20,000 nt of DNA from an uncultured virus (IMG/VR IMGVR_UViG_3300035182_002505) (Duplodnaviria; Heunggongvirae; Uroviricota; Caudoviricetes). Where the stretch lies: the IMG/VR virus record IMGVR_UViG_3300035182_002505; one strand, 5' to 3'. Positions within the stretch are counted from its first letter, which is position 1; every line of letters starts with the position of its first letter. Shown one piece after another: positions 757 through 18,473 of the stretch. Below the pieces are notes generated by a model. It did no database searches, was not told where the DNA came from, and worked only from the letters and a program-made list of their open reading frames with translations. The translations under genes and the position numbers were made by a program.

Positions 757-1092
757 CTATCCGAGTCGCCTGGTCGCCTGAGCGAGCTTGGCCGGTTCGG
801 GCGAGTACGCCCACATGATCAGGGCCAAATGCCTGCGGGTCGGCCACCCATTTTTGTCGAACAGCGGCTCGTTCCTCGCCTCGACTTGGGCCATGTGCCG
901 GGAGACGAAGTTGTTGCGCCTGTTGCGCCACCATGGGTCGAGCTTCGCGAAAGATCCTCCGGCCGACGAATACTGCGCGATAAACTGTCCGGGTGACCGT
1001 GCTCGGACACTGACCCCCCAACTTTCGGCAGTAGGAAGCCACCGTGATACGGTCGAGATAGAGAGCCAGCCAGGTTCCACAGAGGACGCCAT
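757..1092 (-). CDS. Small basic hypothetical protein (111 aa) with WW-RRNNF-RH-AQ...PTRRHLALIMWAY motif
   Basis: 3' part of ORF 757..1302 from ATG 1092 (MASSVEPGW...). Motif-rich, protein-like sequence that fills the gap between the HTH gene and the recombinase. Confidence 0.6.
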   Translation of the reverse strand: MASSVEPGWLSISTVSRWLPTAESWGVSVRARSPGQFIAQYSSAGGSFAKLDPWWRNRRNNFVSRHMAQVEARNEPLFDKNGWPTRRHLALIMWAYSPEPAKLAQATRRLG

Positions 1093-1951
1093 GCCCCCCA
1101 GGAAACACCCAAGCCTCGACCCGCGCAAGGCCGTGGCCCTACTTCGCATCTCGACCGACAAGAGGAAGCAGGAAATGGGAGCGGACGCGCAGCTCCTGGC
1201 CATCAAGCGCTGGGCCCAGCAGCACGACGTCGAGGTAGTGGCCATCGAGGACGAGGAAAAGTCAGGCCGGAAGTCGCTCGACAATCGAGAGGGCCTGATC
1301 AATTGCCTGAACCTTCTGGCTCAGTACGGGGCCTCCCGGCTCATTGTCGCCAAGATCGACCGCATCTCAAGGAGCACGGAGACCTACTCGTTCTTCCTGC
1401 AGAAGCTCCGCGATATGGGGGGTCGCATCTACACCGTCGACGGCGTGGGCAACGTCGAGCCGGACGAAGAAGAGCGGCCCATGGACAAGGCCATGCGCGG
1501 CATGCAGGTCATCTTCGCCGAGCTGGAGGTCGAGCTGACCATTGCCCGCACGAAGGCCGTGTTCGAGGTCAAGAGGGAGCGGGGGGAGAAGCTAGGGGGG
1601 CTCGTGCCGTGGGGGTTCAAGATTGACCACAGCCAGGACGACCCCGCCTTCCCCCGGCGCCACAAGATCGTCCCTGATCTGGAGGAGCGAGCCCTGATGA
1701 AACAGGCGGCGGAGCTGCAGGCATCAGGACTGTCGCTCTCGCAGATCGCCGAACTGTCGGAGCAGTACGGATTCAAGAACAGAAAGGGAGGATGGGCTTC
1801 TCGCAACACCATTTACCAGATGGTACTCGCCCATCGGTCGATCGGAAGAAGCAATCCTGGGGAGGTGACAGCGACACAGCCAGAGGAACTCCGAGTCGCG
1901 GAGGCTCCGACGCCAGAACGCGAACTTCTCGAGGAAAAAAGAAGCGCATGA
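1091..1951 (+). CDS. Serine recombinase (resolvase/invertase catalytic domain plus short recombinase DNA-binding domain), 286 aa
   Basis: LRISTDKRKQ (catalytic Ser motif), SG...REGL, KIDRISRS, FAELE...ARTK, GGLVPWGF, GLSLSQIA...WASRNTIYQMV. AGAGGA upstream of ATG 1091. No C-terminal Zn ribbon. Confidence 0.92.
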   Translation: MPPRKHPSLDPRKAVALLRISTDKRKQEMGADAQLLAIKRWAQQHDVEVVAIEDEEKSGRKSLDNREGLINCLNLLAQYGASRLIVAKIDRISRSTETYSFFLQKLRDMGGRIYTVDGVGNVEPDEEERPMDKAMRGMQVIFAELEVELTIARTKAVFEVKRERGEKLGGLVPWGFKIDHSQDDPAFPRRHKIVPDLEERALMKQAAELQASGLSLSQIAELSEQYGFKNRKGGWASRNTIYQMVLAHRSIGRSNPGEVTATQPEELRVAEAPTPERELLEEKRSA

Positions 1952-2511
1952 GCCCATTTCTGGAAGGAATACTTGCTAAATTTGCCGAGCACGGCCCTCT
2001 CGGTCTCGGCTTCGTGGTCATGTTGTACGCGGTCATCCAGTACGACAAGAAAAAGGACCAACTCACCGAAAAGATCGAGACACTACAGAAGGACTCGTCC
2101 GACGATATCCAGCAGCTCCAGCGCGAATACGCGTCGACCATCCAGCAGATGCAGCGCGATCACGCGACCCTGGTTCAGCAGCGTCAGGTCGAAAATGCCG
2201 CGACCATTCAGCAGCTCCAGGCCGCCCATGCGCTCGCGATCCAGACCATGCAGAAAGACCATGCGCGCGAGATCTTTGATCTGAACCGCGATCACGCGGT
2301 CAAGATCGAGACGATCAACCGCGAGCGCGCCGAGGACGCGGAGGCCGTAGCCGCGAAGCTCGAGGACATGAACATCAAGATGTTCAACGCGGTCAACGTG
2401 ATTTCCGACTCGATGGACGACAGGTTCCAGCCTCCCGTCCCCCAGCTCCAGCCGGCGCAGGCAGATCGTACTGCCCGCCGCCCCGGGTCACATCCCGACA
2501 AAAAGAGGTAG
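1948..2511 (+). CDS. N-terminal transmembrane protein with 11-residue-repeat coiled coil; holin-like (BhlA/UviB-like) N-terminus, 187 aa
   Basis: ATGA overlap with the recombinase stop. EHGPLGLGFVVMLYAVIQY hydrophobic helix followed by DKKK, then eight hendecad repeats. Confidence 0.75.
   Translation: MSPFLEGILAKFAEHGPLGLGFVVMLYAVIQYDKKKDQLTEKIETLQKDSSDDIQQLQREYASTIQQMQRDHATLVQQRQVENAATIQQLQAAHALAIQTMQKDHAREIFDLNRDHAVKIETINRERAEDAEAVAAKLEDMNIKMFNAVNVISDSMDDRFQPPVPQLQPAQADRTARRPGSHPDKKR
2074..2337 (+). repeat. Eight in-frame 33-nt/11-aa degenerate repeats
   Basis: IETLQKDSSDD / IQQLQREYAST / IQQMQRDHATL / VQQRQVENAAT / IQQLQAAHALA / IQTMQKDHARE / IFDLNRDHAVK / IETINRERAED. Confidence 0.85.
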
Positions 2512-2515
2512 TACC

Positions 2516-2788
2516 ATGTCCAAGCACCACAGCCTTTCCCCCAGCGCCCCCGAGTCCCTCCGCCGCGTCATGGAGTCCTCAGACCGCGTGTGCGATCACG
2601 CGACGGCGAGGCTGGACAAGCGCATCGCGCGAGCCAAGGCGATGAACAGGGGCGAGACGCCTCCCCCCGAGGAAGACTCGCACGTGGGCCGGCTTCCGAC
2701 GGCGGCGGTGCTTGGCATGTCTCCCGAGGAGGAAGCCGAGTTCCTCGTCGAAATGTCCGTGCCGCGCCGCAAGGCGATGGCTGGCTGA
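2516..2788 (+). CDS. Hypothetical protein (90 aa)
   Basis: Starts 4 nt after the upstream stop with AGAGGT just before; its stop abuts the tmk stop. Confidence 0.65.
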   Translation: MSKHHSLSPSAPESLRRVMESSDRVCDHATARLDKRIARAKAMNRGETPPPEEDSHVGRLPTAAVLGMSPEEEAEFLVEMSVPRRKAMAG

Positions 2789-3976
2789 TCAGCCGGAAGC
2801 GCAGCAGCCCGCCAGGAGCAGCGGCTCGACCAGGGACCAGATCGCCTGTTCGACCTGGTCCTCGGTCCCGCTCGCATCGACGAATTTGACGTTGTGCGAC
2901 GGGACCAGCTCGTCCGCGATGAGGTACAGATTGTCAACGCACACGAGAAGGTCGTCTCGCTCGAGGCGGTCCGCCGGCTTCCCCCGGGCGGCGCGACGCG
3001 CCTTGGCCTGCTCAATCGGCAGACGGATCACGATCGTGAGGTGAGGCGCCAGGATGCCGCCGCCCGCCGCCGCGTTCAGTGCGCCGATCAGTGTCGCGTC
3101 GTCCATCAAACCGGGCGAGGCCTCCTGGCTCAGCAAGGCGCCCTGGTAGCACAGCGTCGAAAGCTGGTACCGGTCGCAGACAACGTCACACCGCTGCAGG
3201 AGGTGCTCCAGATCGCGGCAGTGCTGCTCGCGGTCGGCGAAGAAGAGCTTGGTCAGTCCCCAGGTCGAGATCGTCGACGATCCGTTGCTCAGGTAGTGCC
3301 GGATCGCGCGGCCGTGCGGACCGTCGGTAGGCTCTGCTTCGAGCGCGGCGCCGATCCGGCCGGCCAGGCGCCTGGCCTGGGTGCTCTTGCCGGATCCGTC
3401 GATGCCTTCCAGCACGATGAACAAGCCGTGGCGGCCCAGGGGGGTCGCCGCGCCACCGCAGACGCCCAAGCGCTGGACATCGCAGGTCGGCACGGGTTCG
3501 CCTGCCTCGCCGGCGCCCTCGGACCCGTAGACCTCATCCTGGCCGCAGAACATCGCGCTGCAGCACTTGGCGTCGATAGACAGCAAGAACGCGAGGTCTG
3601 GCATGCATTCGTCGACCAGATCGGGCCAGCGCCGCACGACCTCCTGTTCCTCGGCGGCGAACAGCGTGGTGGCGGTCGCGAGTTCCTCGTTCAGCCACGC
3701 CGTGAAGCGCCCGGATTTGCGCCATAGGTCGCAGAAGATCGGCGCCGAGAACCCGGTGACCGCGTTGGCGGCGAAGACGGCATACGAGACCATCGGCCTG
3801 TTCGCCTTGTCGTACGGGCGAACTTCGATGGGCCACAGGCTGTCCTCGGGGAACTGCATCGACCATCCGATCCGCCAGAGCATGGCCCAGGCGGAGGCAA
3901 GGTCGGGGACGAGGTGATCAGGAACCGAAACGCAGCGACCTGGGTCGATCGACGAGCATGGCATGCGACGACGCAT
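2789..3976 (-). CDS. tmk: Thymidylate (dTMP) kinase with about 180-aa N-terminal extension of unknown function
   Basis: FIVLEGIDGSGKST P-loop, AEPTDG, LFFADREQH, VVCDRYQLSTLCYQG and VDASG lie in about 2789-3430. Start is uncertain (ATG 3976 or 3964, or an internal start). Confidence 0.88.
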   Translation of the reverse strand: MRRRMPCSSIDPGRCVSVPDHLVPDLASAWAMLWRIGWSMQFPEDSLWPIEVRPYDKANRPMVSYAVFAANAVTGFSAPIFCDLWRKSGRFTAWLNEELATATTLFAAEEQEVVRRWPDLVDECMPDLAFLLSIDAKCCSAMFCGQDEVYGSEGAGEAGEPVPTCDVQRLGVCGGAATPLGRHGLFIVLEGIDGSGKSTQARRLAGRIGAALEAEPTDGPHGRAIRHYLSNGSSTISTWGLTKLFFADREQHCRDLEHLLQRCDVVCDRYQLSTLCYQGALLSQEASPGLMDDATLIGALNAAAGGGILAPHLTIVIRLPIEQAKARRAARGKPADRLERDDLLVCVDNLYLIADELVPSHNVKFVDASGTEDQVEQAIWSLVEPLLLAGCCASG

Positions 3977-4066
3977 ACCACGAACCGATCGGCGCCAGGT
4001 AGACTATCTTCGACTGTCGACTCATAACCGACTGCTCAGGCAAACCGTACCCGCTGAGCAACCCGC

Positions 4067-5380
4067 CTAACGTCGACGAGGCGACAGGGTAAATGAAGGG
4101 TCTTGAAAGAAGCCAGAGGAGTCGAGGTGGTTGATGGTGGCCACGACATTCGGATGAACGAAGTCGCGATTGCCGCTGAGATCGCGGAGGAGTCGATTTC
4201 GCATACGAAAGTACACGGTCGATCGACGGTTGTTGTCGAAGATCTGTACCGGGATACTCTCTTGCAGAGCGAATCTCTCCTTGATCAGCTCGATCACTTG
4301 ATCGCGCACACGGACACCGTGGATGAACTGGTCGGTCCTGGCCTTGTTATTGGCGATGGACGACTGCAAGGTGCTTGCGCTAACGAACTCGGTGGCCTGG
4401 GGAATGCGTCCGGTACGGGCCACAAACTCTTCGAGAATCCCCGGCTTTGACATGATCCGACCCACGTGGTCAGCGATGCGCTTGGACTCTCCTGGAAGGA
4501 TGGTGGCGAACTTTGAAATTCCGCCAATCGGAGAGAAATTCGTGCGCAGGGCCTCGGTGAGTCGGCCATCGACGAGGGCATCGACGCTGCTCGCGGAACG
4601 GCCGGTGTAATTAACCCTGCCTTCGGCGACATAGTTCTTTCCAATCGCAAACCCCTCGGACTTCATCGCATCGCCGGGCCGCTTGTGCTCGGCGACATAG
4701 TTCTTTCCAATCGCAAACCCCTCGGACTTCATCGCATCGCGAGCCTTGCGCATGTCGCGGATCGCGATGAACCGATCAAGGTCTGCGTTGGCCCGCTTGA
4801 GGTTGGCCAGCTCCTCGGCCGAGGAGATCTCCTCGTTGTCGCGGGCGATGCGACGCTGAAGCTCCATCTCTTCCTGGGGTGTCATGACGGACGAATAGGA
4901 CATGCCTCGCCTTTTCTTGCCAACGAACGGCATCATCTCGGACGTGAGCCCGGCCACCGGGAAGGCCACCAGGTTCTGGCGATCGGAGCGGCTCTTGCTG
5001 ACATGAACAACCACGGGCACGTAGCGGGCCTTCTGCATTCGGGCGAGCTTGTCTTGGGCGCGCCTGGCCACGGCATCGAGCCCGCCCATGCGAAGAGCCG
5101 AGTCGACGACGGCCATGGACTCGTGCGTGAGCCTCGTGAACAGCACCTCGTCGCACAGCTCCCACGAGAGAGGGAAGGCATGAACCTGATCAAGGAAGCC
5201 TTCGATCGCCCCGGGCGCGACCCAGGTGGCAAAAGCAGCTTCGACGGCGAGCACGGAGTCCGGCAGGAAGAAGCACTTTTCGCGAAAGAAAGCCTTTTCT
5301 TGCGAAGGCGGTGTCTTATTTAGCTTCCCGGTATTCTCAGCGAAGTAAGCGAGCAACTTGATCTTTTTTTCGATATTCAT
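4067..5380 (-). CDS. Hypothetical protein (437 aa) with internal 17-aa duplication
   Basis: ATG 5380 (MNIEKKIKLL) overlaps the upstream TGA by 1 nt (TGATG). Long open frame; no family recognised. Confidence 0.75.
   Translation of the reverse strand: MNIEKKIKLLAYFAENTGKLNKTPPSQEKAFFREKCFFLPDSVLAVEAAFATWVAPGAIEGFLDQVHAFPLSWELCDEVLFTRLTHESMAVVDSALRMGGLDAVARRAQDKLARMQKARYVPVVVHVSKSRSDRQNLVAFPVAGLTSEMMPFVGKKRRGMSYSSVMTPQEEMELQRRIARDNEEISSAEELANLKRANADLDRFIAIRDMRKARDAMKSEGFAIGKNYVAEHKRPGDAMKSEGFAIGKNYVAEGRVNYTGRSASSVDALVDGRLTEALRTNFSPIGGISKFATILPGESKRIADHVGRIMSKPGILEEFVARTGRIPQATEFVSASTLQSSIANNKARTDQFIHGVRVRDQVIELIKERFALQESIPVQIFDNNRRSTVYFRMRNRLLRDLSGNRDFVHPNVVATINHLDSSGFFQDPSFTLSPRRR
4623..4740. 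repeat. Exact 52-bp direct repeat, two copies (4623-4674, 4689-4740), 66-nt period
   Basis: tcggcgacatagttctttccaatcgcaaacccctcggacttcatcgcatcgc occurs twice, encoding DAMKSEGFAIGKNYVAE twice in frame. Confidence 0.95.
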
Positions 5381-6342
5381 CACGCGCTGACTTTCTTCAC
5401 GTATTTCTTGTAAACGTACCGACCACCGAAGAGAATGCCGGCGACGACGACCAGGCCACCCAGGACCTTGCTGACGGCCCTGGCGCCGGAGACGATCGGG
5501 GACGAACTGGCTGGGACGGCCAGGGAGACATCGACATCGTCGGCGTCGGGCGCCGGTAGCGCGGGGATGACCGGGCAACTTGTCGCGTCGGCCCGGAGCG
5601 GGAGCTGGGTGCAGTCCTCGTAGCCGACCACCCGGCGCCCCTGAAAGGGCCGGCCGGAGGCATCGAGGGACACGCTGCCATCGGGGTTGACCTTGCAGGC
5701 CCACAGTTCACCTGTTCGACGTCCCTGATCATCCGTTCCGGTCCAGACCTCGGACCAGGCGCGGACGACGAGGTCGATGCCGGGCTGTCCCCCATCGACC
5801 GAGTGGACAATGCCGTCCTTCTCGAAGAGCACGGTGAACTCATGCTCGCCGGAGAAGCCGTCGCCTCGGGAGAACCCGCCGTCAGAGGCCAGGCCAATGA
5901 TGACCGCGTCGCCGGGCCCGGGGAGCGGCGTCCCCTCGACCCACGGGATGCCCGAGCGCCAGGCGCCGATAGACTCGGCGAATTCCTTCTCCTGCTCGAC
6001 GGCGAAGTCACCGGCGTTGACCCGGTCGGCGTACCAGCGGTAGAGGGCCGGGTTGTCGACGCCGGCGGCGCGCTCGATCGCCTCCCGGGTGACGCCGCAG
6101 GTCGACTGCGTGGCTGCCTGGCCATCGGCCTGGGCGATCTGCATGTCCGTCGCCTGCTCGACGGGCAAGATGTTGTCGAAATACAGGCGGTGGATGTACT
6201 CGTTCTGTGTCTTTGGGTCCTGGTAGGCGAGGGGCCCGTCGATCATGAGATTGATCGCTGCTACCAGGAACCGGCAGCGCGGCATACCGACGCGCAGAGA
6301 AGTCCTGGCTGTCTCGCGGAGCACGTAATCAAACGAGGTCAT
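5380..6342 (-). CDS. Putative CHAP/NlpC-P60-like cysteine amidase with C-terminal membrane anchor (320 aa)
   Basis: STCG (candidate catalytic Cys), PGPGDAVII, GEHEFTV (candidate His) and SVDGGQ in the expected order. Ends VLGGLVVVAGILFGGRYVYKKYVKK. ATGA overlap with the upstream gene. Confidence 0.62.
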   Translation of the reverse strand: MTSFDYVLRETARTSLRVGMPRCRFLVAAINLMIDGPLAYQDPKTQNEYIHRLYFDNILPVEQATDMQIAQADGQAATQSTCGVTREAIERAAGVDNPALYRWYADRVNAGDFAVEQEKEFAESIGAWRSGIPWVEGTPLPGPGDAVIIGLASDGGFSRGDGFSGEHEFTVLFEKDGIVHSVDGGQPGIDLVVRAWSEVWTGTDDQGRRTGELWACKVNPDGSVSLDASGRPFQGRRVVGYEDCTQLPLRADATSCPVIPALPAPDADDVDVSLAVPASSSPIVSGARAVSKVLGGLVVVAGILFGGRYVYKKYVKKVSA

Positions 6343-6932
6343 TTCGCCCCCTTCTTCCTGGCTGATTGAGCGGGCGAAACACGGCCGGCGTCAGACTCTT
6401 CCGAATCCGTCTCTGCTGCATCCTTCTGCGCATCCTCGATCTTTTTCGCACGGACTCGCTCGGTCTTCGCCTGCGACTTGATAATGAAGCGGACCTGATT
6501 GGCGACGTAGGTCATGTCGCGAACGTTCTTGCCTGTCCGCAGCCGATCGAGAAGGTATGGGGCTCTGGCGTCGAGGATGGTCGCCGCCTTTTTTGCCTCA
6601 TCCTCGTTGCCGTAGCTGTCGACAAATGTGCCGTCGTCGAGCATCAGCACGAAGGAATCGCGGTCCTTGTGGCGAACCAAGACAACGTGAACGGTCGACC
6701 CCTTCTGCATGATGGGGTACTTGGCCGCATTGTAGACGAAGACGTCGCCCATGATCGGGTTGCTGCGTCTGGACGCGACGAGCGGGATGCCTTCGGCGGC
6801 CGCCCGCTGGAAGAGAAGACCGATCTTGCCCGCCTCGTCAGCCTTCCGGGCACGATCGGTCAGGCGCAGCCGAGCCCACAGGGAGCGAAGCTGCCGGTTG
6901 CCAAGGGAATCGAGGAGTTCGGTGACGTCCAC
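6339..6932 (-). CDS. Hypothetical protein (about 197 aa), paralog of 18564..19925
   Basis: Shares IGxLFQxAAxxG and NPIxG...GK...D motifs with 18564..19925. GTG 6932 chosen from the paralog alignment and promoter spacing (ORF track starts at 6968). Confidence 0.75.
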   Translation of the reverse strand: MDVTELLDSLGNRQLRSLWARLRLTDRARKADEAGKIGLLFQRAAAEGIPLVASRRSNPIMGDVFVYNAAKYPIMQKGSTVHVVLVRHKDRDSFVLMLDDGTFVDSYGNEDEAKKAATILDARAPYLLDRLRTGKNVRDMTYVANQVRFIIKSQAKTERVRAKKIEDAQKDAAETDSEESDAGRVSPAQSARKKGAK

Positions 6933-6939
6933 CGAGCAG

Positions 6940-6968
6940 AGGGTACCGGAGTCGAGGTCCGGCCACAA
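6940..6968 (-). promoter_or_regulatory. Putative sigma70-type promoter, leaderless for GTG 6932
   Basis: Minus strand TTGTGG-17 nt-TACCCT-7 nt-GTG. Confidence 0.4.
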
Positions 6969-7000
6969 AAGCCAGCGCGCCCGCTCCTGTCTTGGCCGTT

Positions 7001-7030
7001 TTGGCGAGAAAACGAAGGGTGCGGTACCGT
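7001..7030 (+). promoter_or_regulatory. Putative promoter for the four-paralog operon
   Basis: TTGGCG (7001-7006)-18 nt-TACCGT (7025-7030) in the divergent intergenic region. Confidence 0.3.
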
Positions 7031-7097: not shown

Positions 7098-8441
7098 ATG
7101 CCCCTGCCTACCGACCTCACGAGCAACCTGCCGAAGGTACCGGATCTGACGGCCCTCCTCCAGGACGTCACGCTGGCGAAGTCCGTCGACTCGCTACTTC
7201 CGCCCGAACTACAGGGTAGCGGGGTGACCGATGAGCTGATCAAGGCCATCCAGTCGGGGGCCGTTTCAACTGCTGACGCGGACGCGCTGATCAAGAAAGG
7301 AATCTCGGCCGGTGCGGGGGCGGCGTGCGCGGCAGCGAGTGGCGGCACACTGGCGATGCTTTGCACCGGCGTGGCGAACGCAGTCCTGGCACAGACAGGC
7401 AGCTTCTTCGCCCATGCGGTTGATCCGACTCCGCCCAACGCGGACATGTTCGACCTGCTGATGGACCCGATGGGCGTAGCGCGTGCCGACATGATGGACC
7501 AGTTGCACGACAAGAAGGCAGACCTGCTTGTTCAAATCCTGCCGATGGCTGGCGGAGACCCTGAATCGGAGAAAGCCATTCAGGATCTGGTAGACACCTT
7601 TTACGAAAGCAAAAACGGCTTCGACGGTGTCACGTTGAAGCCCGACCCCGTCAACCGCCCTGACGACTTCCCTGCGGCGTACGGGTACATGCTTCCGCTG
7701 CTCGGTCCGCAGATCTTTTACACGGACCCCGACACGGGCGACACGTTCGAGAACACGTTCTCCGATGTCAACGCTGCCTGGTGGGAGCCCTACTTCAAGA
7801 AGCTCGGCAAGACCTACAAGGACGCAGGGATCAACGTCGACGTCGGCATCAAGCAGATGATCGCCAAGGCGAAGACCATGTACCCGCAGCAGCTCGCCTA
7901 CACGCAGCCTCAGATGAGGCAGCAAGTGGAGGCGATGCTCGATGCACAACACTTTCTCTACCCGGCCCTGGATGACGCCTTCAAGTTGCGCCTCAAGAAC
8001 GTGATGGCGGGTGTCGCGATCAAGGCAAAGCAGAACCTGATCAAGCAGATCGACAACCTGACCCACGAGCTTGTCGTTCGCAGCGGCACGAGTCCGATGG
8101 ACAAGGACGGTGTTGAAAAGATGCGCCAGAAGGCCATCCAGTACGCCGATGAGCTGAGCAGTGGCTCACCACCCAGCAAGGTGGCTCAAGAGATCGACCG
8201 GGACGTGGGCACCCGCACCGATGCACTTCCGGACCTGACTCCTCTGGCCAACATCAGCGCCGCCCCGATCGCTGCTGACCTGAGCATGGAGAAGATCGAA
8301 AAAAAGCACTCGCACCCATTTCTCAAGGCGGTTGCCATCCTGGCGGGTGTTGCCGTCGTCGGCGCGGGTGGTGTGGCGCTGTATCGCAAGAGCAAGGGGC
8401 TCCCCATCGTCCCGACCAACTTCCGCCGTCCCCTCAAGTGA
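7098..8441 (+). CDS. Tail-anchored membrane protein, paralog 1 of 4 (447 aa)
   Basis: Shared PDDFPAAYGY, WW-x-YF-K-G and MYPQQ-Y motifs. C-terminal TM AVAILAGVAVVGAGGVALY then RKSKGLPIVPTNFRRPLK. Confidence 0.9.
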   Translation: MPLPTDLTSNLPKVPDLTALLQDVTLAKSVDSLLPPELQGSGVTDELIKAIQSGAVSTADADALIKKGISAGAGAACAAASGGTLAMLCTGVANAVLAQTGSFFAHAVDPTPPNADMFDLLMDPMGVARADMMDQLHDKKADLLVQILPMAGGDPESEKAIQDLVDTFYESKNGFDGVTLKPDPVNRPDDFPAAYGYMLPLLGPQIFYTDPDTGDTFENTFSDVNAAWWEPYFKKLGKTYKDAGINVDVGIKQMIAKAKTMYPQQLAYTQPQMRQQVEAMLDAQHFLYPALDDAFKLRLKNVMAGVAIKAKQNLIKQIDNLTHELVVRSGTSPMDKDGVEKMRQKAIQYADELSSGSPPSKVAQEIDRDVGTRTDALPDLTPLANISAAPIAADLSMEKIEKKHSHPFLKAVAILAGVAVVGAGGVALYRKSKGLPIVPTNFRRPLK

Positions 8442-8443
8442 CC

Positions 8444-10075
8444 ATGGCCCCCACTAACAACAGAACCCTCGGCGACAAGACTGACGACACCTTTGGCATG
8501 CTGCAGGCTCTGCAAAGCCTGAACGTGGCGCGGCAGGCGGGGTCCCAGCTTCCTGGGGTCTACCAGAAGAACGACACGACTCGGCAGATCATGGACGGCA
8601 TCAGGTCTGGCATCTGGACGAACGAGACCGTCCAGGCCATGATCAACACCGGGATCGGATCCAATCCGGCCAGCGTCTGCGACAGCAAAAAGCCAGGCAT
8701 GGTGGTCCTGTGCGCCATAGCGACCGAACTCGTACGCTCGGCAACGGCAGGATGCCTCTCGGCGCGCGTCCCGTTCGAGCCGCCGACCCTGGCAGGGATC
8801 ATCGGCGATGACCCGCTCTTCGGTGGCGCCTTTCAGGGCAAGGAGTACGTCGAGAACACGCCGGATCCGGTCGGCTCGATCGCCAAGCTGATGGTGAAGC
8901 AGCTCAGCACCTTTCGGGCCTGCCTGTTCGAGGTCGTTCCGGAAATCGCCGGCACGATGGTCGATGCCCAGACCATCATGGACCAGGTCGTCGACGGCAT
9001 GATCCAGAACCTCTACGGCCTGCCTCTGCAGGGCATTAAGGCGCTGGCGCCCGAGCTGGTGTCGAAGACCAAGGACCAGGATGCGACGGACGCCTCGTGG
9101 TGGAGGACGTACTTCGCCAAGCTGGGCGCGACCTACAAGGCCGCCCTGCCCGACAGCGAGGACGACATCGACGAGGTCGTGACCAGGGTCATCCAGAAGG
9201 CGGACGCCGAGTACCCGACGCAGGCGCAGTATTCGCTGCCATTTTACCGGCAGCAGATCGCAGCGATGATCGACGCGCAGACCTTCTTCTACCCCTTGTT
9301 GGACCGGGCTCTCCTGGCCCGTCTCACCGGCGTGTCGGCTGCGGCCGCACTGGCCACGAAGTTCAAGGTGGCATCGGCCGCCGTGGCGCTGGGCGATCTG
9401 ATCCGCAAGGCCTTCCAGGGCACCTCGCTGAACACGTCGACCACCTCGGTCGACAACATCGCGATCGGAGCCCTCGAGTCCATGGCCAACCGGAGCCCGG
9501 AGGAGATGGTGGAGGTCATCCTGAGCGCGACTGCGACCTCGTCACTGTCCCCGGAACTCCTGGTCACCCTCACCCCCGTGGAACCCAGCAAGCAAGGCCC
9601 GGGGGCCTTCCAGCTTTTCCCCACGAACATGCCACCGGTCACTACGACGAAGCCTGGGCCGATCGCGGGAGGGTTCCGGCCCGTCCCGGGCCAGGCGCCG
9701 AGGCCGAGCCCCGGCCAGGTCCCGAGCGACTGGCTCAAGCCGATCCCCGTGGTCGCACCTGCGAGCAGCTCGCACAGCGGCTCGCACAGCAGCTCGCAGA
9801 CCAGCGCCTCGGCGGGCTCGTCGACCGGTGCCGGTGCCGGCCACAACAGCGGCTCGAGCCACGCGTCGCCCGGCGGCGCTGGCCCCCAGGGACCGGTGGC
9901 GTCAGCGCCGGCGGAGGAGGCTGCCGACACCAAGACCCCGACGACCCATCCGGTCCTCAAGGGACTCGCCATCGCGGGCGGCGTGCTCGCCGTTGGCGCC
10001 GGAGGCCTCGCCCTCTACCGCAAGACCCAGGGCCTTCCGGCCATCCCGACGAACCCTCGTAAACCGCTTTCCTGA
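8444..10075 (+). CDS. Tail-anchored membrane protein, paralog 2 of 4 (about 543 aa), Pro/Ser/Gly-rich stalk
   Basis: PELVSKTKDQDAT..SWW and YP.Q.QY..PFYRQQ motifs. C-terminal TM then YRKTQGLPAIPTNPRKPLS. ATG 8444, or GTG 8438 overlapping the upstream TGA. Confidence 0.9.
   Translation: MAPTNNRTLGDKTDDTFGMLQALQSLNVARQAGSQLPGVYQKNDTTRQIMDGIRSGIWTNETVQAMINTGIGSNPASVCDSKKPGMVVLCAIATELVRSATAGCLSARVPFEPPTLAGIIGDDPLFGGAFQGKEYVENTPDPVGSIAKLMVKQLSTFRACLFEVVPEIAGTMVDAQTIMDQVVDGMIQNLYGLPLQGIKALAPELVSKTKDQDATDASWWRTYFAKLGATYKAALPDSEDDIDEVVTRVIQKADAEYPTQAQYSLPFYRQQIAAMIDAQTFFYPLLDRALLARLTGVSAAAALATKFKVASAAVALGDLIRKAFQGTSLNTSTTSVDNIAIGALESMANRSPEEMVEVILSATATSSLSPELLVTLTPVEPSKQGPGAFQLFPTNMPPVTTTKPGPIAGGFRPVPGQAPRPSPGQVPSDWLKPIPVVAPASSSHSGSHSSSQTSASAGSSTGAGAGHNSGSSHASPGGAGPQGPVASAPAEEAADTKTPTTHPVLKGLAIAGGVLAVGAGGLALYRKTQGLPAIPTNPRKPLS
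9048..9087 (+). repeat. Constant block A, copy in paralog 2 (40 bp identical to 10734-10773)
   Basis: cgcccgagctggtgtcgaagaccaaggaccaggatgcgac in both places. Confidence 0.93.
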
Positions 10076-10087
10076 AAGACGACCCTC

Positions 10088-11503
10088 ATGCCTCACGTGC
10101 TCGGAGACGCAGTACAAGACAAGATCGTAGCAGCCCTGCAAGAGCTGTCGGATGCCAAGACGCAGGAAGCACAGCTTCCGGTGGCTCTTCAGGGAGACGA
10201 CATCTCGACGGACATCCTCGCAGGGATGCGCAGCGGTGCGTTCACCGAGGCGGAGATCCAGTCGCTGATCCAGAACAGCACCTCGGCGCGTCCGGACGAC
10301 ATCACCAGGTCCACCAAGCCCGGGATGGTGACGATCAACAAGGTTTCTCGAGGGCTCATCGATCAAGCAACCGCCTCGTGCATCGGGCCGAACGCGACGG
10401 TTCAGCACAACAACTTGAGCGGCTGGGGCATTTTCAGCGCAGGCAAGGTGGACTTCAGCGGTCAGGGAGACAACTTTGACCAGCTCGGGTACCAGCCCGT
10501 CTCCGACCTCATCACGCAGCAGAATGCCGCGTTGAGGGATGACAACGCCTGCCTCATCGCCAACGTGACGCCGATCGCGGCCAACGATCAGGTGACCCGA
10601 TCGCTGCTGGTCAACCAGATCGACGACTTCACCAAGCCGCAGGACTTCGGCCCCCCGGACGTGGTCAATCGACCCAACGACTTCCCCGCAGGTTACGGCT
10701 ATAAATTGCCGCTTTTTCCGATCAAAACGCTCTCGCCCGAGCTGGTGTCGAAGACCAAGGACCAGGATGCGACCGAAAGCTCCTGGTGGAGAAAGCACTT
10801 CCAGAAGGTCGGCGACATTCTCTCCGGAGCAGGCGTCTACGACCGGACGGTTCAAGACGTGATCGGTCAGATGATCGCGAACGCTGACACGATGTACCCG
10901 CAGCAGATGCAGTACACCGTCCCCTTCTACCGTCAGCAGTACGAAGCGCTGGTGGACATGCAGGCGTACCTGAACCCGGTCCTCGATGAGGCGCTGCGTC
11001 GCCGGCTCTCGGGTGTCATCGCCGGGTGGGCTTTGGCTACCCACAAGGGGGTGGTGGACGCGATCGTCAATCTCGTCTACCTAATGGCGGACATGTCCGG
11101 GGTGAATGTCCGGAACAACGCGAAGGCAGACCAGCTCGTGGCCAGGGCTCTGACCTACGCCACAGCTCTTCTGACCACGCCAGTGACGCAGGTTGCCAAG
11201 AATCTGGCGGCTGACGTGCCGAACATGGCTGGCCCGCTGGACGTGAGCCTTCTCACCAACCTCTCCCTCACGCCACAGATTCAACTCATCAACATCCACG
11301 GGGGAAGCAAGAACCCGCTGGGTGCACCCAGCGGGGCGCCAGGAGAAGGGGGGTCGGGCGGGACCAGCACAGGCCACAAGATCCTGGTAGGATTCGGCAT
11401 CCTGGCGCTCGTGACCGGAATTGCTGCGGCGAGCGTGGCCGTCTACCGTAAACGCAAGGGACTGCCCGCAATCCCATCCGACTTCACCAAGCCGCTTCGT
11501 TGA
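10088..11503 (+). CDS. Tail-anchored membrane protein, paralog 3 of 4 (471 aa)
   Basis: PNDFPAGYGY, PELVSKTKDQDATESSWW and MYPQQMQYTVPFYRQQ motifs. C-terminal TM then YRKRKGLPAIPSDFTKPLR. Confidence 0.9.
   Translation: MPHVLGDAVQDKIVAALQELSDAKTQEAQLPVALQGDDISTDILAGMRSGAFTEAEIQSLIQNSTSARPDDITRSTKPGMVTINKVSRGLIDQATASCIGPNATVQHNNLSGWGIFSAGKVDFSGQGDNFDQLGYQPVSDLITQQNAALRDDNACLIANVTPIAANDQVTRSLLVNQIDDFTKPQDFGPPDVVNRPNDFPAGYGYKLPLFPIKTLSPELVSKTKDQDATESSWWRKHFQKVGDILSGAGVYDRTVQDVIGQMIANADTMYPQQMQYTVPFYRQQYEALVDMQAYLNPVLDEALRRRLSGVIAGWALATHKGVVDAIVNLVYLMADMSGVNVRNNAKADQLVARALTYATALLTTPVTQVAKNLAADVPNMAGPLDVSLLTNLSLTPQIQLINIHGGSKNPLGAPSGAPGEGGSGGTSTGHKILVGFGILALVTGIAAASVAVYRKRKGLPAIPSDFTKPLR
10736..10789 (+). 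repeat. Constant block A, copy in paralog 3 (54 bp identical to 12304-12357)
   Basis: cccgagctggtgtcgaagaccaaggaccaggatgcgaccgaaagctcctggtgg. Confidence 0.95.
10891..10939 (+). repeat. Constant block B, copy in paralog 3 (49 bp identical to 12459-12507)
   Basis: gatgtacccgcagcagatgcagtacaccgtccccttctaccgtcagcag. Confidence 0.95.
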
Positions 11504-11511
11504 GGAACGCC

Positions 11512-13458
11512 ATGGACCAAGAAAACCAAGCCATCGAGACCGAGAACTACGAGGCCGCACCGCCTTCCGAGGGGGCCACGCTCAGCGCCCTTCCGGGCGA
11601 CGACCAGACCCGTGGATCCGTCGGCGAAATCGGGCAGGTGTCGACGGACGCCGCCGACCATCCTTCCGACTTGAGCGCCGTCCCCAACGACAGCCAGGAC
11701 TTCAAGATCTCATCGGCGCTGACGGATCTTTCCTCGGCCAAGCATGATGAAGCCAGACTTCCCGGCGTCTTCATGGAAGACGTCTCGACGAAGGAGATGC
11801 TCGATGGGATTCGCCAGGGAACGCTCAGCTTCAACACGCTGGACCTTTTGATCGCGAACGCGCGCAGCTCGCGACCGGATCACGTCTGCGACGTCAACAA
11901 TTACGGCATTGCGATGATCTGCAAGGCGTCGTACGGCCTGGTCTCGAAGAACGTGGACCCATGTATCGGCGCATCGCAGAGCCTGGGATGGGGATGGTCA
12001 CCGTTTGCTCACGGAGCGGACTCGGACACCCCCCAGGGCGATCTCTTCGACGTATCGCTCGATCCCGTCGGGGACGAGTCCACGAGCAGGAAGCAGAAGA
12101 TCGCGGACGTCCACGCTTGCCTGACGAAGATCGTTCCTGCGCTTTGTGCCCAGGACAAGTTCCTGACAGGTGAAGTCCAGCACCAGATTGATGCCTTTAC
12201 CGCCCCCCTGATCAAGGGACTCCCCGACCCGGATCACAAGGCAGACGACTTCCCTGCGGCCTACGGCTACCTGCTCCCGCTGGTCGGCGTCAAGACCATT
12301 TACCCCGAGCTGGTGTCGAAGACCAAGGACCAGGATGCGACCGAAAGCTCCTGGTGGCAGAAATACTTCACCAGGATCGGCCAGCTCTACACGAAGGCCG
12401 GCATCGACCCGACCAACATCAACATCGCGACGTCGAAGGCGATTGCCAACGCGAACAAGATGTACCCGCAGCAGATGCAGTACACCGTCCCCTTCTACCG
12501 TCAGCAGGTGGAGGCGATGATCGACGGGCAGAAGTTCTTCTATCCCACCCTCGACAACGTCTTCAAGCGGAGGCTGACCAACGTGATCGCAGGCGCAGCA
12601 ATCGCGGCCAAGCGGAACATGATCGCTGCGATCGTCAGCCTCGTCTACACCATGGGTGAGGTGGGGGGCCTGGACGTCACCAACCAGGCCGTGGCCGATG
12701 ACCTTGTCTCCAGGGCCTTTATCTTCGCCAACAGCCTGCTAACCTCATCCGTCGCGACGGTGAGGGCCGACGTGCTGGCTTACCTGCAGAACCTGAAGGT
12801 GCCGGCTGTCCTGCCGATCGTGACTTCCATCGCACCGATCGTCCCGATCGTCTCTCTGACGCCGGCTCAGATCAAGAAGGACAGCAGCAGCCAGGGCCAG
12901 CAAACCCTCACCCCACTGATGCCTGTCGGCGGAGGCAAGACGCAGGGAGACCAGGGTTCGAGCGGGTCGAGTCAAAAGTTCCCCGTCCTCAACCCCGCCC
13001 AGACCTTCCTTCCCGGTACAAAGTTCATCGACCCGGCCTCCAGCTCAGGCGGCTGGCAATCGAGCTTCCCGGGCCTGCACCAGACCTGGAGCAGCTCCGG
13101 CGCAGGCAGCGACAGCGGCAGCGGCAGCGGCTCGTCCCAGAGCAACCAAGGGTCGGACACGGGAACGGGCAGCGGATCGGGTCTCGAGTTGACGAAGACC
13201 GTCGACCAGCCCGCGCATGTCGCCCCCCCTGCGGCCGAAGACTCCACGCCGGCCACCGCGGACACCACGCCGGCCACCGCGGACACCACGCCGGCGGCGG
13301 CGACCGACAAGCCCATGAGCCCCGTCGTCAAGGGCATCCTGTTCGTTGCGGGTGCGGCTGCCCTCGGGACAGCGGGCTACCTGATCTGGCAGGCGACACA
13401 GAAGAAGGCAGCCACGGCTTCCCTGCCGCCTGCCAGCGACGACGAGACCCCGTTATAA
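11512..13458 (+). CDS. Tail-anchored membrane protein, paralog 4 of 4 (about 648 aa), acidic N-terminal extension and Ser/Gly/Thr-rich stalk
   Basis: GAGGA upstream of ATG 11512; same core motifs. C-terminal TM GILFVAGAAALGTAGYLIW then QATQKK. Confidence 0.9.
   Translation: MDQENQAIETENYEAAPPSEGATLSALPGDDQTRGSVGEIGQVSTDAADHPSDLSAVPNDSQDFKISSALTDLSSAKHDEARLPGVFMEDVSTKEMLDGIRQGTLSFNTLDLLIANARSSRPDHVCDVNNYGIAMICKASYGLVSKNVDPCIGASQSLGWGWSPFAHGADSDTPQGDLFDVSLDPVGDESTSRKQKIADVHACLTKIVPALCAQDKFLTGEVQHQIDAFTAPLIKGLPDPDHKADDFPAAYGYLLPLVGVKTIYPELVSKTKDQDATESSWWQKYFTRIGQLYTKAGIDPTNINIATSKAIANANKMYPQQMQYTVPFYRQQVEAMIDGQKFFYPTLDNVFKRRLTNVIAGAAIAAKRNMIAAIVSLVYTMGEVGGLDVTNQAVADDLVSRAFIFANSLLTSSVATVRADVLAYLQNLKVPAVLPIVTSIAPIVPIVSLTPAQIKKDSSSQGQQTLTPLMPVGGGKTQGDQGSSGSSQKFPVLNPAQTFLPGTKFIDPASSSGGWQSSFPGLHQTWSSSGAGSDSGSGSGSSQSNQGSDTGTGSGSGLELTKTVDQPAHVAPPAAEDSTPATADTTPATADTTPAAATDKPMSPVVKGILFVAGAAALGTAGYLIWQATQKKAATASLPPASDDETPL
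12304..12357 (+). repeat. Constant block A, copy in paralog 4
   Basis: Identical to 10736-10789. Confidence 0.95.
12459..12507 (+). repeat. Constant block B, copy in paralog 4
   Basis: Identical to 10891-10939. Confidence 0.95.
13244..13295 (+). repeat. 21-bp tandem repeat, 2.5 copies (TPATADT) in the stalk of paralog 4
   Basis: ccacgccggccaccgcggaca twice, then ccacgccggc. Confidence 0.9.
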
Positions 13459-17554: not shown

Positions 17555-18243
17555 ATGGCCCAACAGTTTGCGACGTGGCGCACTGCTACACCTCCGACGA
17601 CGAATCGCTCAGGCCGACGGTTCACGGTCACGAAGCCTCATCGCTCGGTGACCTTTCGGACCTGATCAACGGCAACATGGAGCAAGTGGGCAACAACATC
17701 GCCGATGCGATCCAGGCGAAGGTCATTGAGCGGCTCCCTGCCGTCATCGAAAGCGCGACGCCTGCGCTCACCAAGGCGGCAGAAGATGCGTTTGGGGAGG
17801 TCGTCAAAAGCGACGTGTACCAGCAGCATATCAGCGGCCTCATGGAGGAAGCGAAGACCGCAAAGAAGCACGGTCTGATCGCTCTGGCCGTCACCGGAGT
17901 GGCGACGGCTCTGCTCACCTGGGGACTCGTGCGGTACGCGGGGCCGGCGAAGTTATCTGCTCAAAACGGCGGCTCGTCGTTCTCATCCCACGGCACTTCT
18001 TCCTGGTGTGCCGACTTCGGCGGGGCGGGACGGGGGGCAGCGGCCGGACGCCCCACCTTGGTGGCGTTGCGCTTGGACCACGCCCGAGCGCGGGAAGCCT
18101 CGATGCGAGCCCACTTGCTTTTCGGGTTTCCGTGCTTGTCGGTGGCACCCGCCTCGTCGTCCTTTTTCGCCTTCCAGTCAGCGAACCCAGCGATCTGGTT
18201 GAGGTACTCGGGAGGGCACTTCGAGAAGGGCATGTCCTTGTAG
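17555..18243 (+). pseudogene. Small membrane protein gene with uncertain ends (possible frameshift near 17645, possible lost stop at 17953)
   Basis: Protein-like core LGDLSDLINGNMEQVGNNIADAIQ... with TM GLIALAVTGVATALLTWGLVRY in the 17479 frame. The promoter-defined ATG 17555 is in another frame. The frame runs 283 nt antisense into the next gene. Confidence 0.45.
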
Positions 18244-18473
18244 CTGTCACCAGGCCACTTCGGCGGATCCTTGAACACGATCGGGTCGCCGTACTTGGAG
18301 GCGAGGTCTTCGTCGGTGGCGATCGTCCCGGACGGAGGCCCCATCAGCGGATCGTAGGGCTGCGAGGAGCCCGCTGCCCCGACGGATCCAGGCAAGCGTG
18401 CCTCGATGTAATCGAGGCGAGCGGAGATACCGCGGAGGATGAGGAGAATCTCTTCGGTTTTGTCGTTCAGCAT
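17961..18473 (-). CDS. Hypothetical protein (170 aa) with SSB-like acidic C-terminal tip (EEVPWDENDEPPF)
   Basis: Compact core YGDPIVFKDPPKWPGDSY...CPPEYL...RARAW, Pro/Ala linker and acidic tail ending in PF; has its own promoter. Confidence 0.8.
   Translation of the reverse strand: MLNDKTEEILLILRGISARLDYIEARLPGSVGAAGSSQPYDPLMGPPSGTIATDEDLASKYGDPIVFKDPPKWPGDSYKDMPFSKCPPEYLNQIAGFADWKAKKDDEAGATDKHGNPKSKWARIEASRARAWSKRNATKVGRPAAAPRPAPPKSAHQEEVPWDENDEPPF

Follow-up and report, generated by a model that had tools for sequence, protein, structure and literature searches.

Work on phage mosaicism by De Paepe et al. (2014, PMC3945230) describes relaxed homologous recombination in which exchange is favoured in more conserved regions, quotes minimal pairing segments of 31-34 bp for RecA and 23-27 bp for Red-beta, reports ~100-bp exchanges within phage genes as frequent, and states that repeated sequence is usually lacking in phage genomes. 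In the T-even adhesin gp38, conserved glycine-rich motifs lie beside hypervariable segments that set host range, as described by Trojet et al. (2011, PMC3157838), and in Anaplasma marginale the msp2 system is described as one expression site with 7-12 silent donor alleles and a hypervariable centre (PMC3338850). The survey of Wang and Chen (2018, PMC6053082) concerns full-length, long-lasting homogenization in cellular genomes.

Here we analysed a window of 20,000 nt, the whole stretch of DNA under study, from the uncultured virus IMGVR_UViG_3300035182_002505 (Caudoviricetes), whose record is ~20% complete as a virus. On its plus strand, to which all coordinates below refer, four co-directional paralogs form a tandem array, each an intact, full open reading frame without stops: gene 1 (7098-8441, 447 aa), gene 2 (8444-10075, 543 aa), which encodes a low-complexity stalk, gene 3 (10088-11503, 471 aa) and gene 4 (11512-13458, 648 aa), which encodes a long Ser/Gly/Thr-rich stalk. 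Each protein has one C-terminal hydrophobic stretch, predicted to be a membrane anchor, which bears out the term “membrane genes” used in a preliminary description of this DNA, and the proteins may be located at a surface. None of the four matches a family among the Pfam, PHROGs and NCBIfam profiles, their best hit among PDB sequences (E 0.46) gives no family assignment, and an Atlas search with the paralogs returned no usable match; the models that the Atlas itself supplies have low confidence (pLDDT 0.32 and 0.49). A scan of the contig, ~20% of the genome, found no family members beyond the four.

Only patches of 38-54 bp are alike in these viral genes, whose proteins are 32-40% identical in pairwise comparison, in contrast to the full-length homogenization treated by Wang and Chen (PMC6053082). 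Like the mosaicism described by De Paepe et al. (PMC3945230), the patches are short identical tracts inside phage genes, longer than the minimal pairing segments quoted for RecA and Red-beta. The exchanges described there take place between phages and prophages, whereas here they would take place between paralogs of one genome, and no Rad52-like recombinase was detected in this fragment. We consider short-tract, homology-dependent gene conversion between old phage paralogs, and not a dedicated cassette-switching machine, to be the best explanation of the patches, with a probability of about 0.72.

Identical blocks in genes 2, 3 and 4

Two blocks are common to genes 3 and 4. Block A (54 bp), at 10736-10789 in gene 3 (residues 217-234), is identical at 54/54 positions to 12304-12357 in gene 4, and block B (49 bp), at 10891-10939 in gene 3 (residues 269-284), is identical at 49/49 positions to 12459-12507 in gene 4, exactly where the preliminary description had placed them. 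The share of gene 2 in block A, also noted there, is confirmed as a 40-bp tract at 9048-9087 identical to 10734-10773 of gene 3, 38 bp of which are also identical to 12304-12341 of gene 4. For gene 1, the reported 15-bp match (7878-7892 = 10892-10906 = 12460-12474) exists but is not significant by permutation (p 0.065), nor is a 17-bp match between genes 1 and 4 (7662-7678 = 12244-12260; p 0.16), which had escaped that description. The tract ends are nested and pair-specific (40 bp for genes 2/3, 38 bp for genes 2/4, 54 and 49 bp for genes 3/4), as separate conversion events would leave them. The codon phase of the blocks is the same in genes 2, 3 and 4; both blocks are direct repeats within co-directional genes, and they are mutually unrelated in sequence. 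A search across the contig found no inverted copy of either block, and no silent donor copies were found elsewhere in the contig (~20% of the genome).

The identity extends to synonymous positions. At identical residues, synonymous codons match in 30/30 cases inside the blocks versus 66/149 outside (Fisher 8e-10), which lies above both the gene-wide background and the level that codon bias predicts. When codon status was shuffled among identical residues (n = 5000), none of the permutations (0/5000 for each pair) gave a run of 54 nt in genes 3/4 or of 40 nt in genes 2/3, and a run of 38 nt in genes 2/4 was attained in 3/5000. Per-residue codon usage over the 34 block codons gives a log10 P of -7.95 to -9.36, and the codons common to the blocks include non-preferred ones, e.g., CGT at 0.11. 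The likelihood of the blocks given codon usage differs little among genes 2, 3 and 4 and does not distinguish donor from recipient. The synonymous-site counts, together with a codon-bias P of ~1e-8 to 1e-9, uphold the earlier argument that protein-level selection alone is insufficient and support the conclusion that neither protein-level selection nor codon bias explains the blocks.

For a metagenomic virus record, identity of this kind might be an artefact, either of assembly collapse or of strong protein conservation in biased codons, and block B indeed covers a motif common to all four proteins (11/16 residues shared with genes 1 and 2). This explanation is already largely refuted, and we regard it as scarcely credible. 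The codon-bias probability is about 1e-8 or lower, and block A, lacking conservation in the wider family, is not a family-conserved motif: across seven outside homologs, identity to gene 3 is 17.5% in block A, 18.9% in the segment between the blocks and 17.9% in block B. The public sequencing runs X1-X4, of which X1 may come from the sample that yielded this record, provide contigs from a 31-letter graph, from which rare variants are dropped. At positions predicted for exact repeats in such a graph lie 8 contig ends in X1 and 6 in X2, every half-block is tied to a copy-specific flank, and neither other letters nor single-letter variants are listed in the contigs of 4/4 runs. The blocks are real and not assembly collapse, because the contigs break exactly at the repeats with no other letters.

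Block A is present in three genes of one probable operon, as might be expected of a nucleotide-level element, i.e., a protein-binding site, RNA structure, small-RNA target or packaging signal, whose identity is kept by selection on DNA or RNA. We hold such an element to be very unlikely. The blocks fold no better than expected (37% and 39% of 500 synonymous resamples do equally well) and show no dyad excess, a search of Rfam up to E 1 gave no match, and no promoter-like site was found in them; the closest further match to block A in the contig has 22/54 mismatches, and the tract ends vary by gene pair. Binding sites, moreover, usually need less than complete identity over 49-54 bp.

A serine recombinase gene (1091-1951, plus strand; Pfam Resolvase, E 1.8e-25) lies 5.1 kb upstream of the array, and its product might act site-specifically on the blocks, excising or shuffling array segments. 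The preliminary description stated that nothing links the two, and this still holds. Serine recombinase crossover sites follow a 12+2+12 model; the best such dyad reaches 6/12 in each block, a value that 85-89% of array windows reach or exceed, so that block dyad symmetry is at or below the array background. Blocks A and B have no sequence relation to each other, and the collagen-fibre paralogs considered below carry the same kind of patches far off and inverted. Site-specific crossover is not known to homogenize 50-bp tracts, and we judge a role of this enzyme at the blocks to be highly implausible. The array likewise differs from a shufflon or invertase switch, as the blocks lack dyad-symmetric sites and there are no inverted segments with alternative gene ends.

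The segment between the blocks

Between blocks A and B lie 101 bp in both genes (10790-10890 in gene 3 and 12358-12458 in gene 4), and the 49/101 identical positions counted by hand in the preliminary description are exact. There the segment was taken as the variable part of a constant-variable-constant cassette, a reading that fails because divergence in the segment matches that in the remainder of genes 3 and 4. Nucleotide identity is 49.0% within it versus 50.3% elsewhere, and 41% of 331 equal-sized windows show identity as low or lower; at the amino acid level, 9/34 residues are identical versus 36%, and 19% of 331 windows fall at or below this level. Nor are the two tracts significantly close to each other, the chance of their falling within 101 bp ranging from P 0.16 to 0.69 according to the span allowed. 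Since variability in the segment does not exceed that of the remaining gene sequence, and since neither donors in the contig nor alternative inserts in the run contigs were found, the suggested diversification system is not sustained, and a dedicated variation system is unlikely.

Diversity-generating retroelements combine a template and variable repeats, which differ mostly at adenines, with a reverse transcriptase. In contrast, the blocks here are identical, the middle segment differs at half of all positions, and no reverse transcriptase was found among the scanned proteins of the fragment. The DNA layout is constant-different-constant, like that described for msp2 (PMC3338850); unlike msp2, the array consists of four intact genes, with no donors in the contig and a centre that is not hypervariable. 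As in gp38, the conserved in-frame flanks could act as exchange points, whereas the middle segment here is at background divergence, in a protein without known function and without demonstrated chimeric alleles (PMC3157838).

The gp38 precedent, in which exchanges are described at conserved motifs beside hypervariable segments (PMC3157838), favours an account of the blocks as homology arms under selection: through them the phage population would exchange the 34 residues, either between genes 3 and 4 or with paralogs carried by co-infecting relatives, and would form in-frame chimeras, as a means of diversifying a virion or surface protein. Indeed, two in-phase blocks above the pairing length flank a segment of equal length, and in X3 one contig of 316 nt, at a depth of 5.3, runs from gene 2 (8906-9047) into gene 3 (10734-10907) by way of the 40-bp repeat. 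We rejected this joint as evidence of a recombinant, as 31-letter contigs cannot phase a 40-bp repeat; it lacks read-level support, and X3 also contains 9416-10294, which the deletion implied by the joint would remove. Also counting against selected arms are the background-level divergence of the segment, the lack of silent donors in the contig and the non-significant closeness of the tracts. A search for recombinant alleles yielded, apart from this unphased joint, no alternative insert or letter in the contigs of 4/4 runs, from which rare variants are dropped, and no recombined block fragment among 49 short-protein candidates, none of which scored. We consider selected arms unlikely, and we find it quite improbable that a jumbo phage keeps in-frame arms through which genes 3 and 4 swap 34 residues and its population also gains chimeras of genes 2, 3 and 4. 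If this were true, the array would diversify a virion or host-contact protein as a module that needs neither recombinase sites nor donors, and the X3 joint would be a genuine recombinant; frequent block swaps would make for a module that is both simple and testable.

Two other features of the run contigs were set aside. X2 contig 15 passes through block B along a reference-like path, which was rejected as phase evidence because the same 31-letter limit applies to it, and the contig gaps in X2 and X3 were rejected as evidence since low-depth holes prove nothing: X2 has no contig over the middle segment of gene 3, its bin depth of 1.79 being explained by the contigs on its two sides, and in X3 no contig covers 12121-12347. 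The two middle segments, equal in length, form a graph bubble, which an assembler may remove.

Probable gene conversion between paralogs of one genome

Recent or ongoing localized gene conversion, which the preliminary description had already proposed in its recent form, remains the best reading of the synonymous identity, the codon-bias result and the lack of block A conservation in the family. It is inferred from one haplotype, because the searches turned up no close relative that carries the array. A general recombination route, by way of host RecA or a phage annealing protein encoded outside this fragment, would copy a few dozen bases wherever enough similarity persists between the paralogs; none of the scanned proteins of the fragment was recognized as a general recombinase (record ~20% complete). 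A patch above the pairing threshold could keep re-converting while the sequence on either side of it diverges, so that sharp islands remain. As a by-product, the blocks might on rare occasions give rise to in-frame swaps or to chimeras formed by deletion, which their shared codon phase in genes 2, 3 and 4 would allow.

Collagen-fibre paralogs of the same contig, a set unrelated to the four-gene array, serve as an internal control and show the same patchy-identity signature. They share a 91-bp identical block, the copies of which lie 48 kb apart and inverted, as well as 38+38 bp within a 61%-identical domain. In four other, more diverged paralog pairs of the contig, the longest identical runs are 7-13 bp. 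A 52-bp duplication also occurs at 4623/4689.

Counting against conversion, identity jumps abruptly from 100% to about 50% at the tract edges, and for conversion to start in DNA so diverged, persistent islands have to be assumed in addition. A segment of equal length with a patch on each side also fits selection that keeps the segment different, along the lines of the peak-of-divergence idea put forward in PMC3924837.

Ectopic gene conversion is a known process, of which the array is a clean, statistically strong example. The added value is modest and lies in the setting, a single large uncultured phage in which two paralog families, unrelated to each other, show patchy conversion and one affected protein family has no match in Pfam, PHROGs, NCBIfam or PDB. 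Since phage genomes usually lack repeats, paralog arrays of large phages would let relaxed recombination act within a single genome. A literature search, judged by title or the start of the abstract, returned no direct precedent for conversion among phage paralogs, though one may exist in print.

Relatives and the wider family

Relatives carrying the array were sought in viral_contigs (with gene 3, the four-gene alignment, the block A pattern, P0005, P0011 and the P0009-group alignment as queries), in metagenome_contigs (with the four-gene alignment), and in genome_contigs and GenBank phages; none was found in these contig and phage scans, which may omit records very near the window’s genome. 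One related locus, L004 (encoding P0005), is ~23-29% identical over the matched parts. It has a single family member in the sequence covered, 10 kb on the upstream side and about 1 kb on the downstream side, and direct repeats over 17 bp were not found in it. Partition trees of the sequence preceding the blocks and of that following them both pair genes 3 and 4 as sisters, at weak support values of 61 and 64, and the tree of the middle segment gives no resolution. Another protein, P0003, corresponds to a fragment of gene 1 running from the block B motif, with two residue differences; encoded on a 985-bp contig, it is read as a contig-end fragment. A primase search returned 72 loci at 24-35% identity over long matches.

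The gene array and its source contig

The window is the terminal 20 kb (55552-75551) of one 75,551-bp contig with 63.9% G+C, a linear virus record whose CheckV completeness of about 20% implies a full genome of probably several hundred kb. A codon-usage script called 76 genes on the contig. The PHROGs scan covered 71 of these, and the Pfam scan 52 of them together with 17 window ORFs. The scanned proteins include collagen-repeat fibre proteins, a DnaG primase, an SNF2 helicase, several DNA methyltransferases, an endolysin-like protein, a thymidylate kinase and a serine recombinase, and neither scan identified a capsid protein, reverse transcriptase or general recombinase among the scanned proteins of this roughly 20%-complete record. 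The SNF2 helicase (3673-7011 of the whole contig, + strand; also in locus L001) carries a mid-protein LAGLIDADG domain, read as an intein; terminase matches fell on this middle part.

Genes 1-4 (7098-8441, 8444-10075, 10088-11503 and 11512-13458) form a co-directional array, are all uninterrupted, and encode proteins of 447, 543, 471 and 648 aa that are 32-40% identical to each other; the 75,551-bp contig contains no fifth member. Every array protein has a hydrophobic stretch near its C-terminus followed by basic residues, and the gene 4 protein has a second such stretch at residue 432. Searches of Pfam, PHROGs and NCBIfam with the four genes gave zero matches, the best match to PDB sequences reached only E 0.46, and the Atlas offered no usable lead. 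When 1.84 billion representatives were searched in full with HMMER, the family had 12 matches: two window genes, two fragments (from genes 1 and 3), seven homologs that are distant but cover the full domain, and a single match confined to the anchor. In the gene 4 stalk, a 21-bp tandem repeat at 13244-13295 (31-bp exact overlap match) coincides with a pile-up of many unrelated contigs in all four sequencing runs described below.

A gene unrelated to the array lies just upstream of it on the opposite strand (5380-6342, -). Its product has no PHROGs, Pfam or NCBIfam match; a membrane anchor is predicted at its C-terminus, where the tail is basic. A gene of no known function at 4070-5380 (-) contains an exact, in-frame 52-bp duplication (4623-4674 = 4689-4740, 66 bp apart) that repeats a 17-residue peptide. 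The 170-aa product of 17961-18473 (-), likewise without a family match in Pfam, PHROGs or NCBIfam, has an acidic C-terminal tail reminiscent of single-stranded DNA-binding proteins.

Identical patches in genes 2, 3 and 4

Genes 3 and 4 are identical at 54/54 bases of block A (10736-10789 and 12304-12357) and 49/49 of block B (10891-10939 and 12459-12507), and at 49/101 in between. Gene 2 (9048-9087) matches gene 3 exactly over 40 bp (10734-10773) and gene 4 over 38 bp (12304-12341), and gene 1 shares 15 bp of block sequence; re-comparison of the array sequences reproduced every coordinate of the preliminary description. At identical residues, the synonymous codons agree in all 30 cases within the blocks but in 66 of 149 outside them (Fisher 8e-10), and block identity has a log10 P of -7.95 to -9.36 under codon bias, with non-preferred codons among those shared, so that synonymous identity exceeds both the gene background and the codon-bias expectation. 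When codon status was permuted 5000 times among identical residues, the 54 nt of genes 3/4 and the 40 nt of genes 2/3 were never reached and the 38 nt of genes 2/4 were reached three times; the gene 1 matches were not significant. Two further gene 1/gene 4 matches, 17 bp just upstream of block A (7662-7678 and 12244-12260) and 12 bp straight after block B (7926-7937 = 12508-12519), were not significant by conditional permutation. The patches have ends specific to each gene pair, and genes 2-4 read them in one codon phase. Judged by alignment, the family does not share block A as a motif, because identity to gene 3 over seven outside homologs is 17.5% there, resembling the middle segment (18.9%) and block B (17.9%), although alignment at such distance is uncertain.

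Assembly collapse could in principle have produced such identity. Four public runs (X1-X4) from four studies, one of which may be the source sample, contain 71-98% of the stretch's words, and the contigs listed for them carry no other letters. Among these contigs, eight X1 ends (9077, 9058, 10763, 10760, 10920, 10910, 12333 and 12478) and six X2 ends lie at the exact-repeat positions predicted for a 31-letter graph. Reading 30 bases in from both flanks is enough to span a block of 54 or 49 bp, which links every block in genes 3 and 4 to its own flanks, and collapse was rejected. The patches are exact, significant and real.

In run X3, a 316-nt contig of depth 5.3 starts in gene 2 (8906-9047), crosses the 40-bp repeat and continues in gene 3 (10734-10907), the arrangement expected of an in-frame deletion chimera. 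Because the words of a 31-letter graph are shorter than the 40 identical bases, this joint is without read-level phase, and X3, a shallow run with holes, also contains 9416-10294 (depth 6.2), which such a deletion would eliminate. The joint weighs neither for nor against gene conversion. None of 49 candidate short protein fragments bore the block region.

The segment between the blocks

The preliminary description had proposed a constant-variable-constant cassette, possibly a diversification system. However, genes 3 and 4 agree at 49.0% of the nucleotides of the middle segment (10790-10890 and 12358-12458) versus 50.3% over 397 aligned codons outside the region, and at the protein level at 9/34 versus 36%; of 331 equal-sized windows, 41% (DNA) and 19% (protein) have values no higher than these. 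The picture is therefore one of even divergence along both genes, broken by two identical islands, and not that of a constant frame around a variable insert. Two such tracts would fall within 101 bp by chance with P 0.16 (1290-bp span) or 0.69 (330-bp core). No donor copy of the blocks exists elsewhere in the contig (nearest match to block A outside the array, 22/54 mismatches), and the contigs listed for the four runs include no alternative 101-bp insert, although contigs drop rare variants. The blocks show no folding or dyad excess, Rfam match or promoter-like site. It is unlikely that the blocks serve to exchange the middle segment; gene conversion is the probable reading, and the variable centre is not supported.

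Fibre paralogs and probable short-tract conversion

Three collagen-repeat fibre genes (contig 375-1991, -; 2059-3507, -; 50348-51574, +; also in loci L001 and L003) served as an internal control. The first and third share a 91-bp identical N-terminal block, 48 kb apart and inverted, and the second and third share 38+38 identical bases in a C-terminal domain of 61% protein identity; by sequence, the third is a mosaic, with its N-terminus related to the first and its C-terminal domain to the second. For the other fibre pair and three further paralog pairs (26-39% identical), the longest runs measure 7-13 bp. Short identical tracts thus form between this phage's paralogs irrespective of how the genes are ordered or oriented, so that a general homology-dependent process is favoured over an array-specific system.

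We infer short-tract gene conversion between paralogs, mediated by host RecA or by a phage annealing protein encoded outside the fragment. According to De Paepe et al. (PMC3945230), RecA needs a pairing segment of at least 31-34 bp and Red-beta one of at least 23-27 bp, and exchanges of ~100 bp within phage genes are frequent. Patches of 38-54 bp exceed these minima, so they would go on re-converting while flanking sequence drifts; rare swaps or deletions could likewise occur at them. Codon usage of the blocks reveals no donor or recipient direction. Selection for alike patches or for a different middle may act, as in the peak-of-divergence idea (PMC3924837).

The array resembles concerted evolution by gene conversion (PMC6053082) in how it works, but is patchy and viral; gp38 (PMC3157838) and msp2 (PMC3338850) are alike in layout alone, whereas the array, when tested, had no hypervariable centre and, compared with msp2, no silent donors in the contig. 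The array would be a further instance of a known process, in a phage protein family without a name. The one related locus obtained, L004, carries just one member of the family and lacks long repeats; the array is therefore not established as a conserved system. L004 (1-12824) shares the primase (40%), a papain-like peptidase, a small cysteine-rich protein and one array-family member, which adjoins a gene whose product looks, by eye, like dihydrofolate reductase. This array-family protein is also present on a 129-kb contig.
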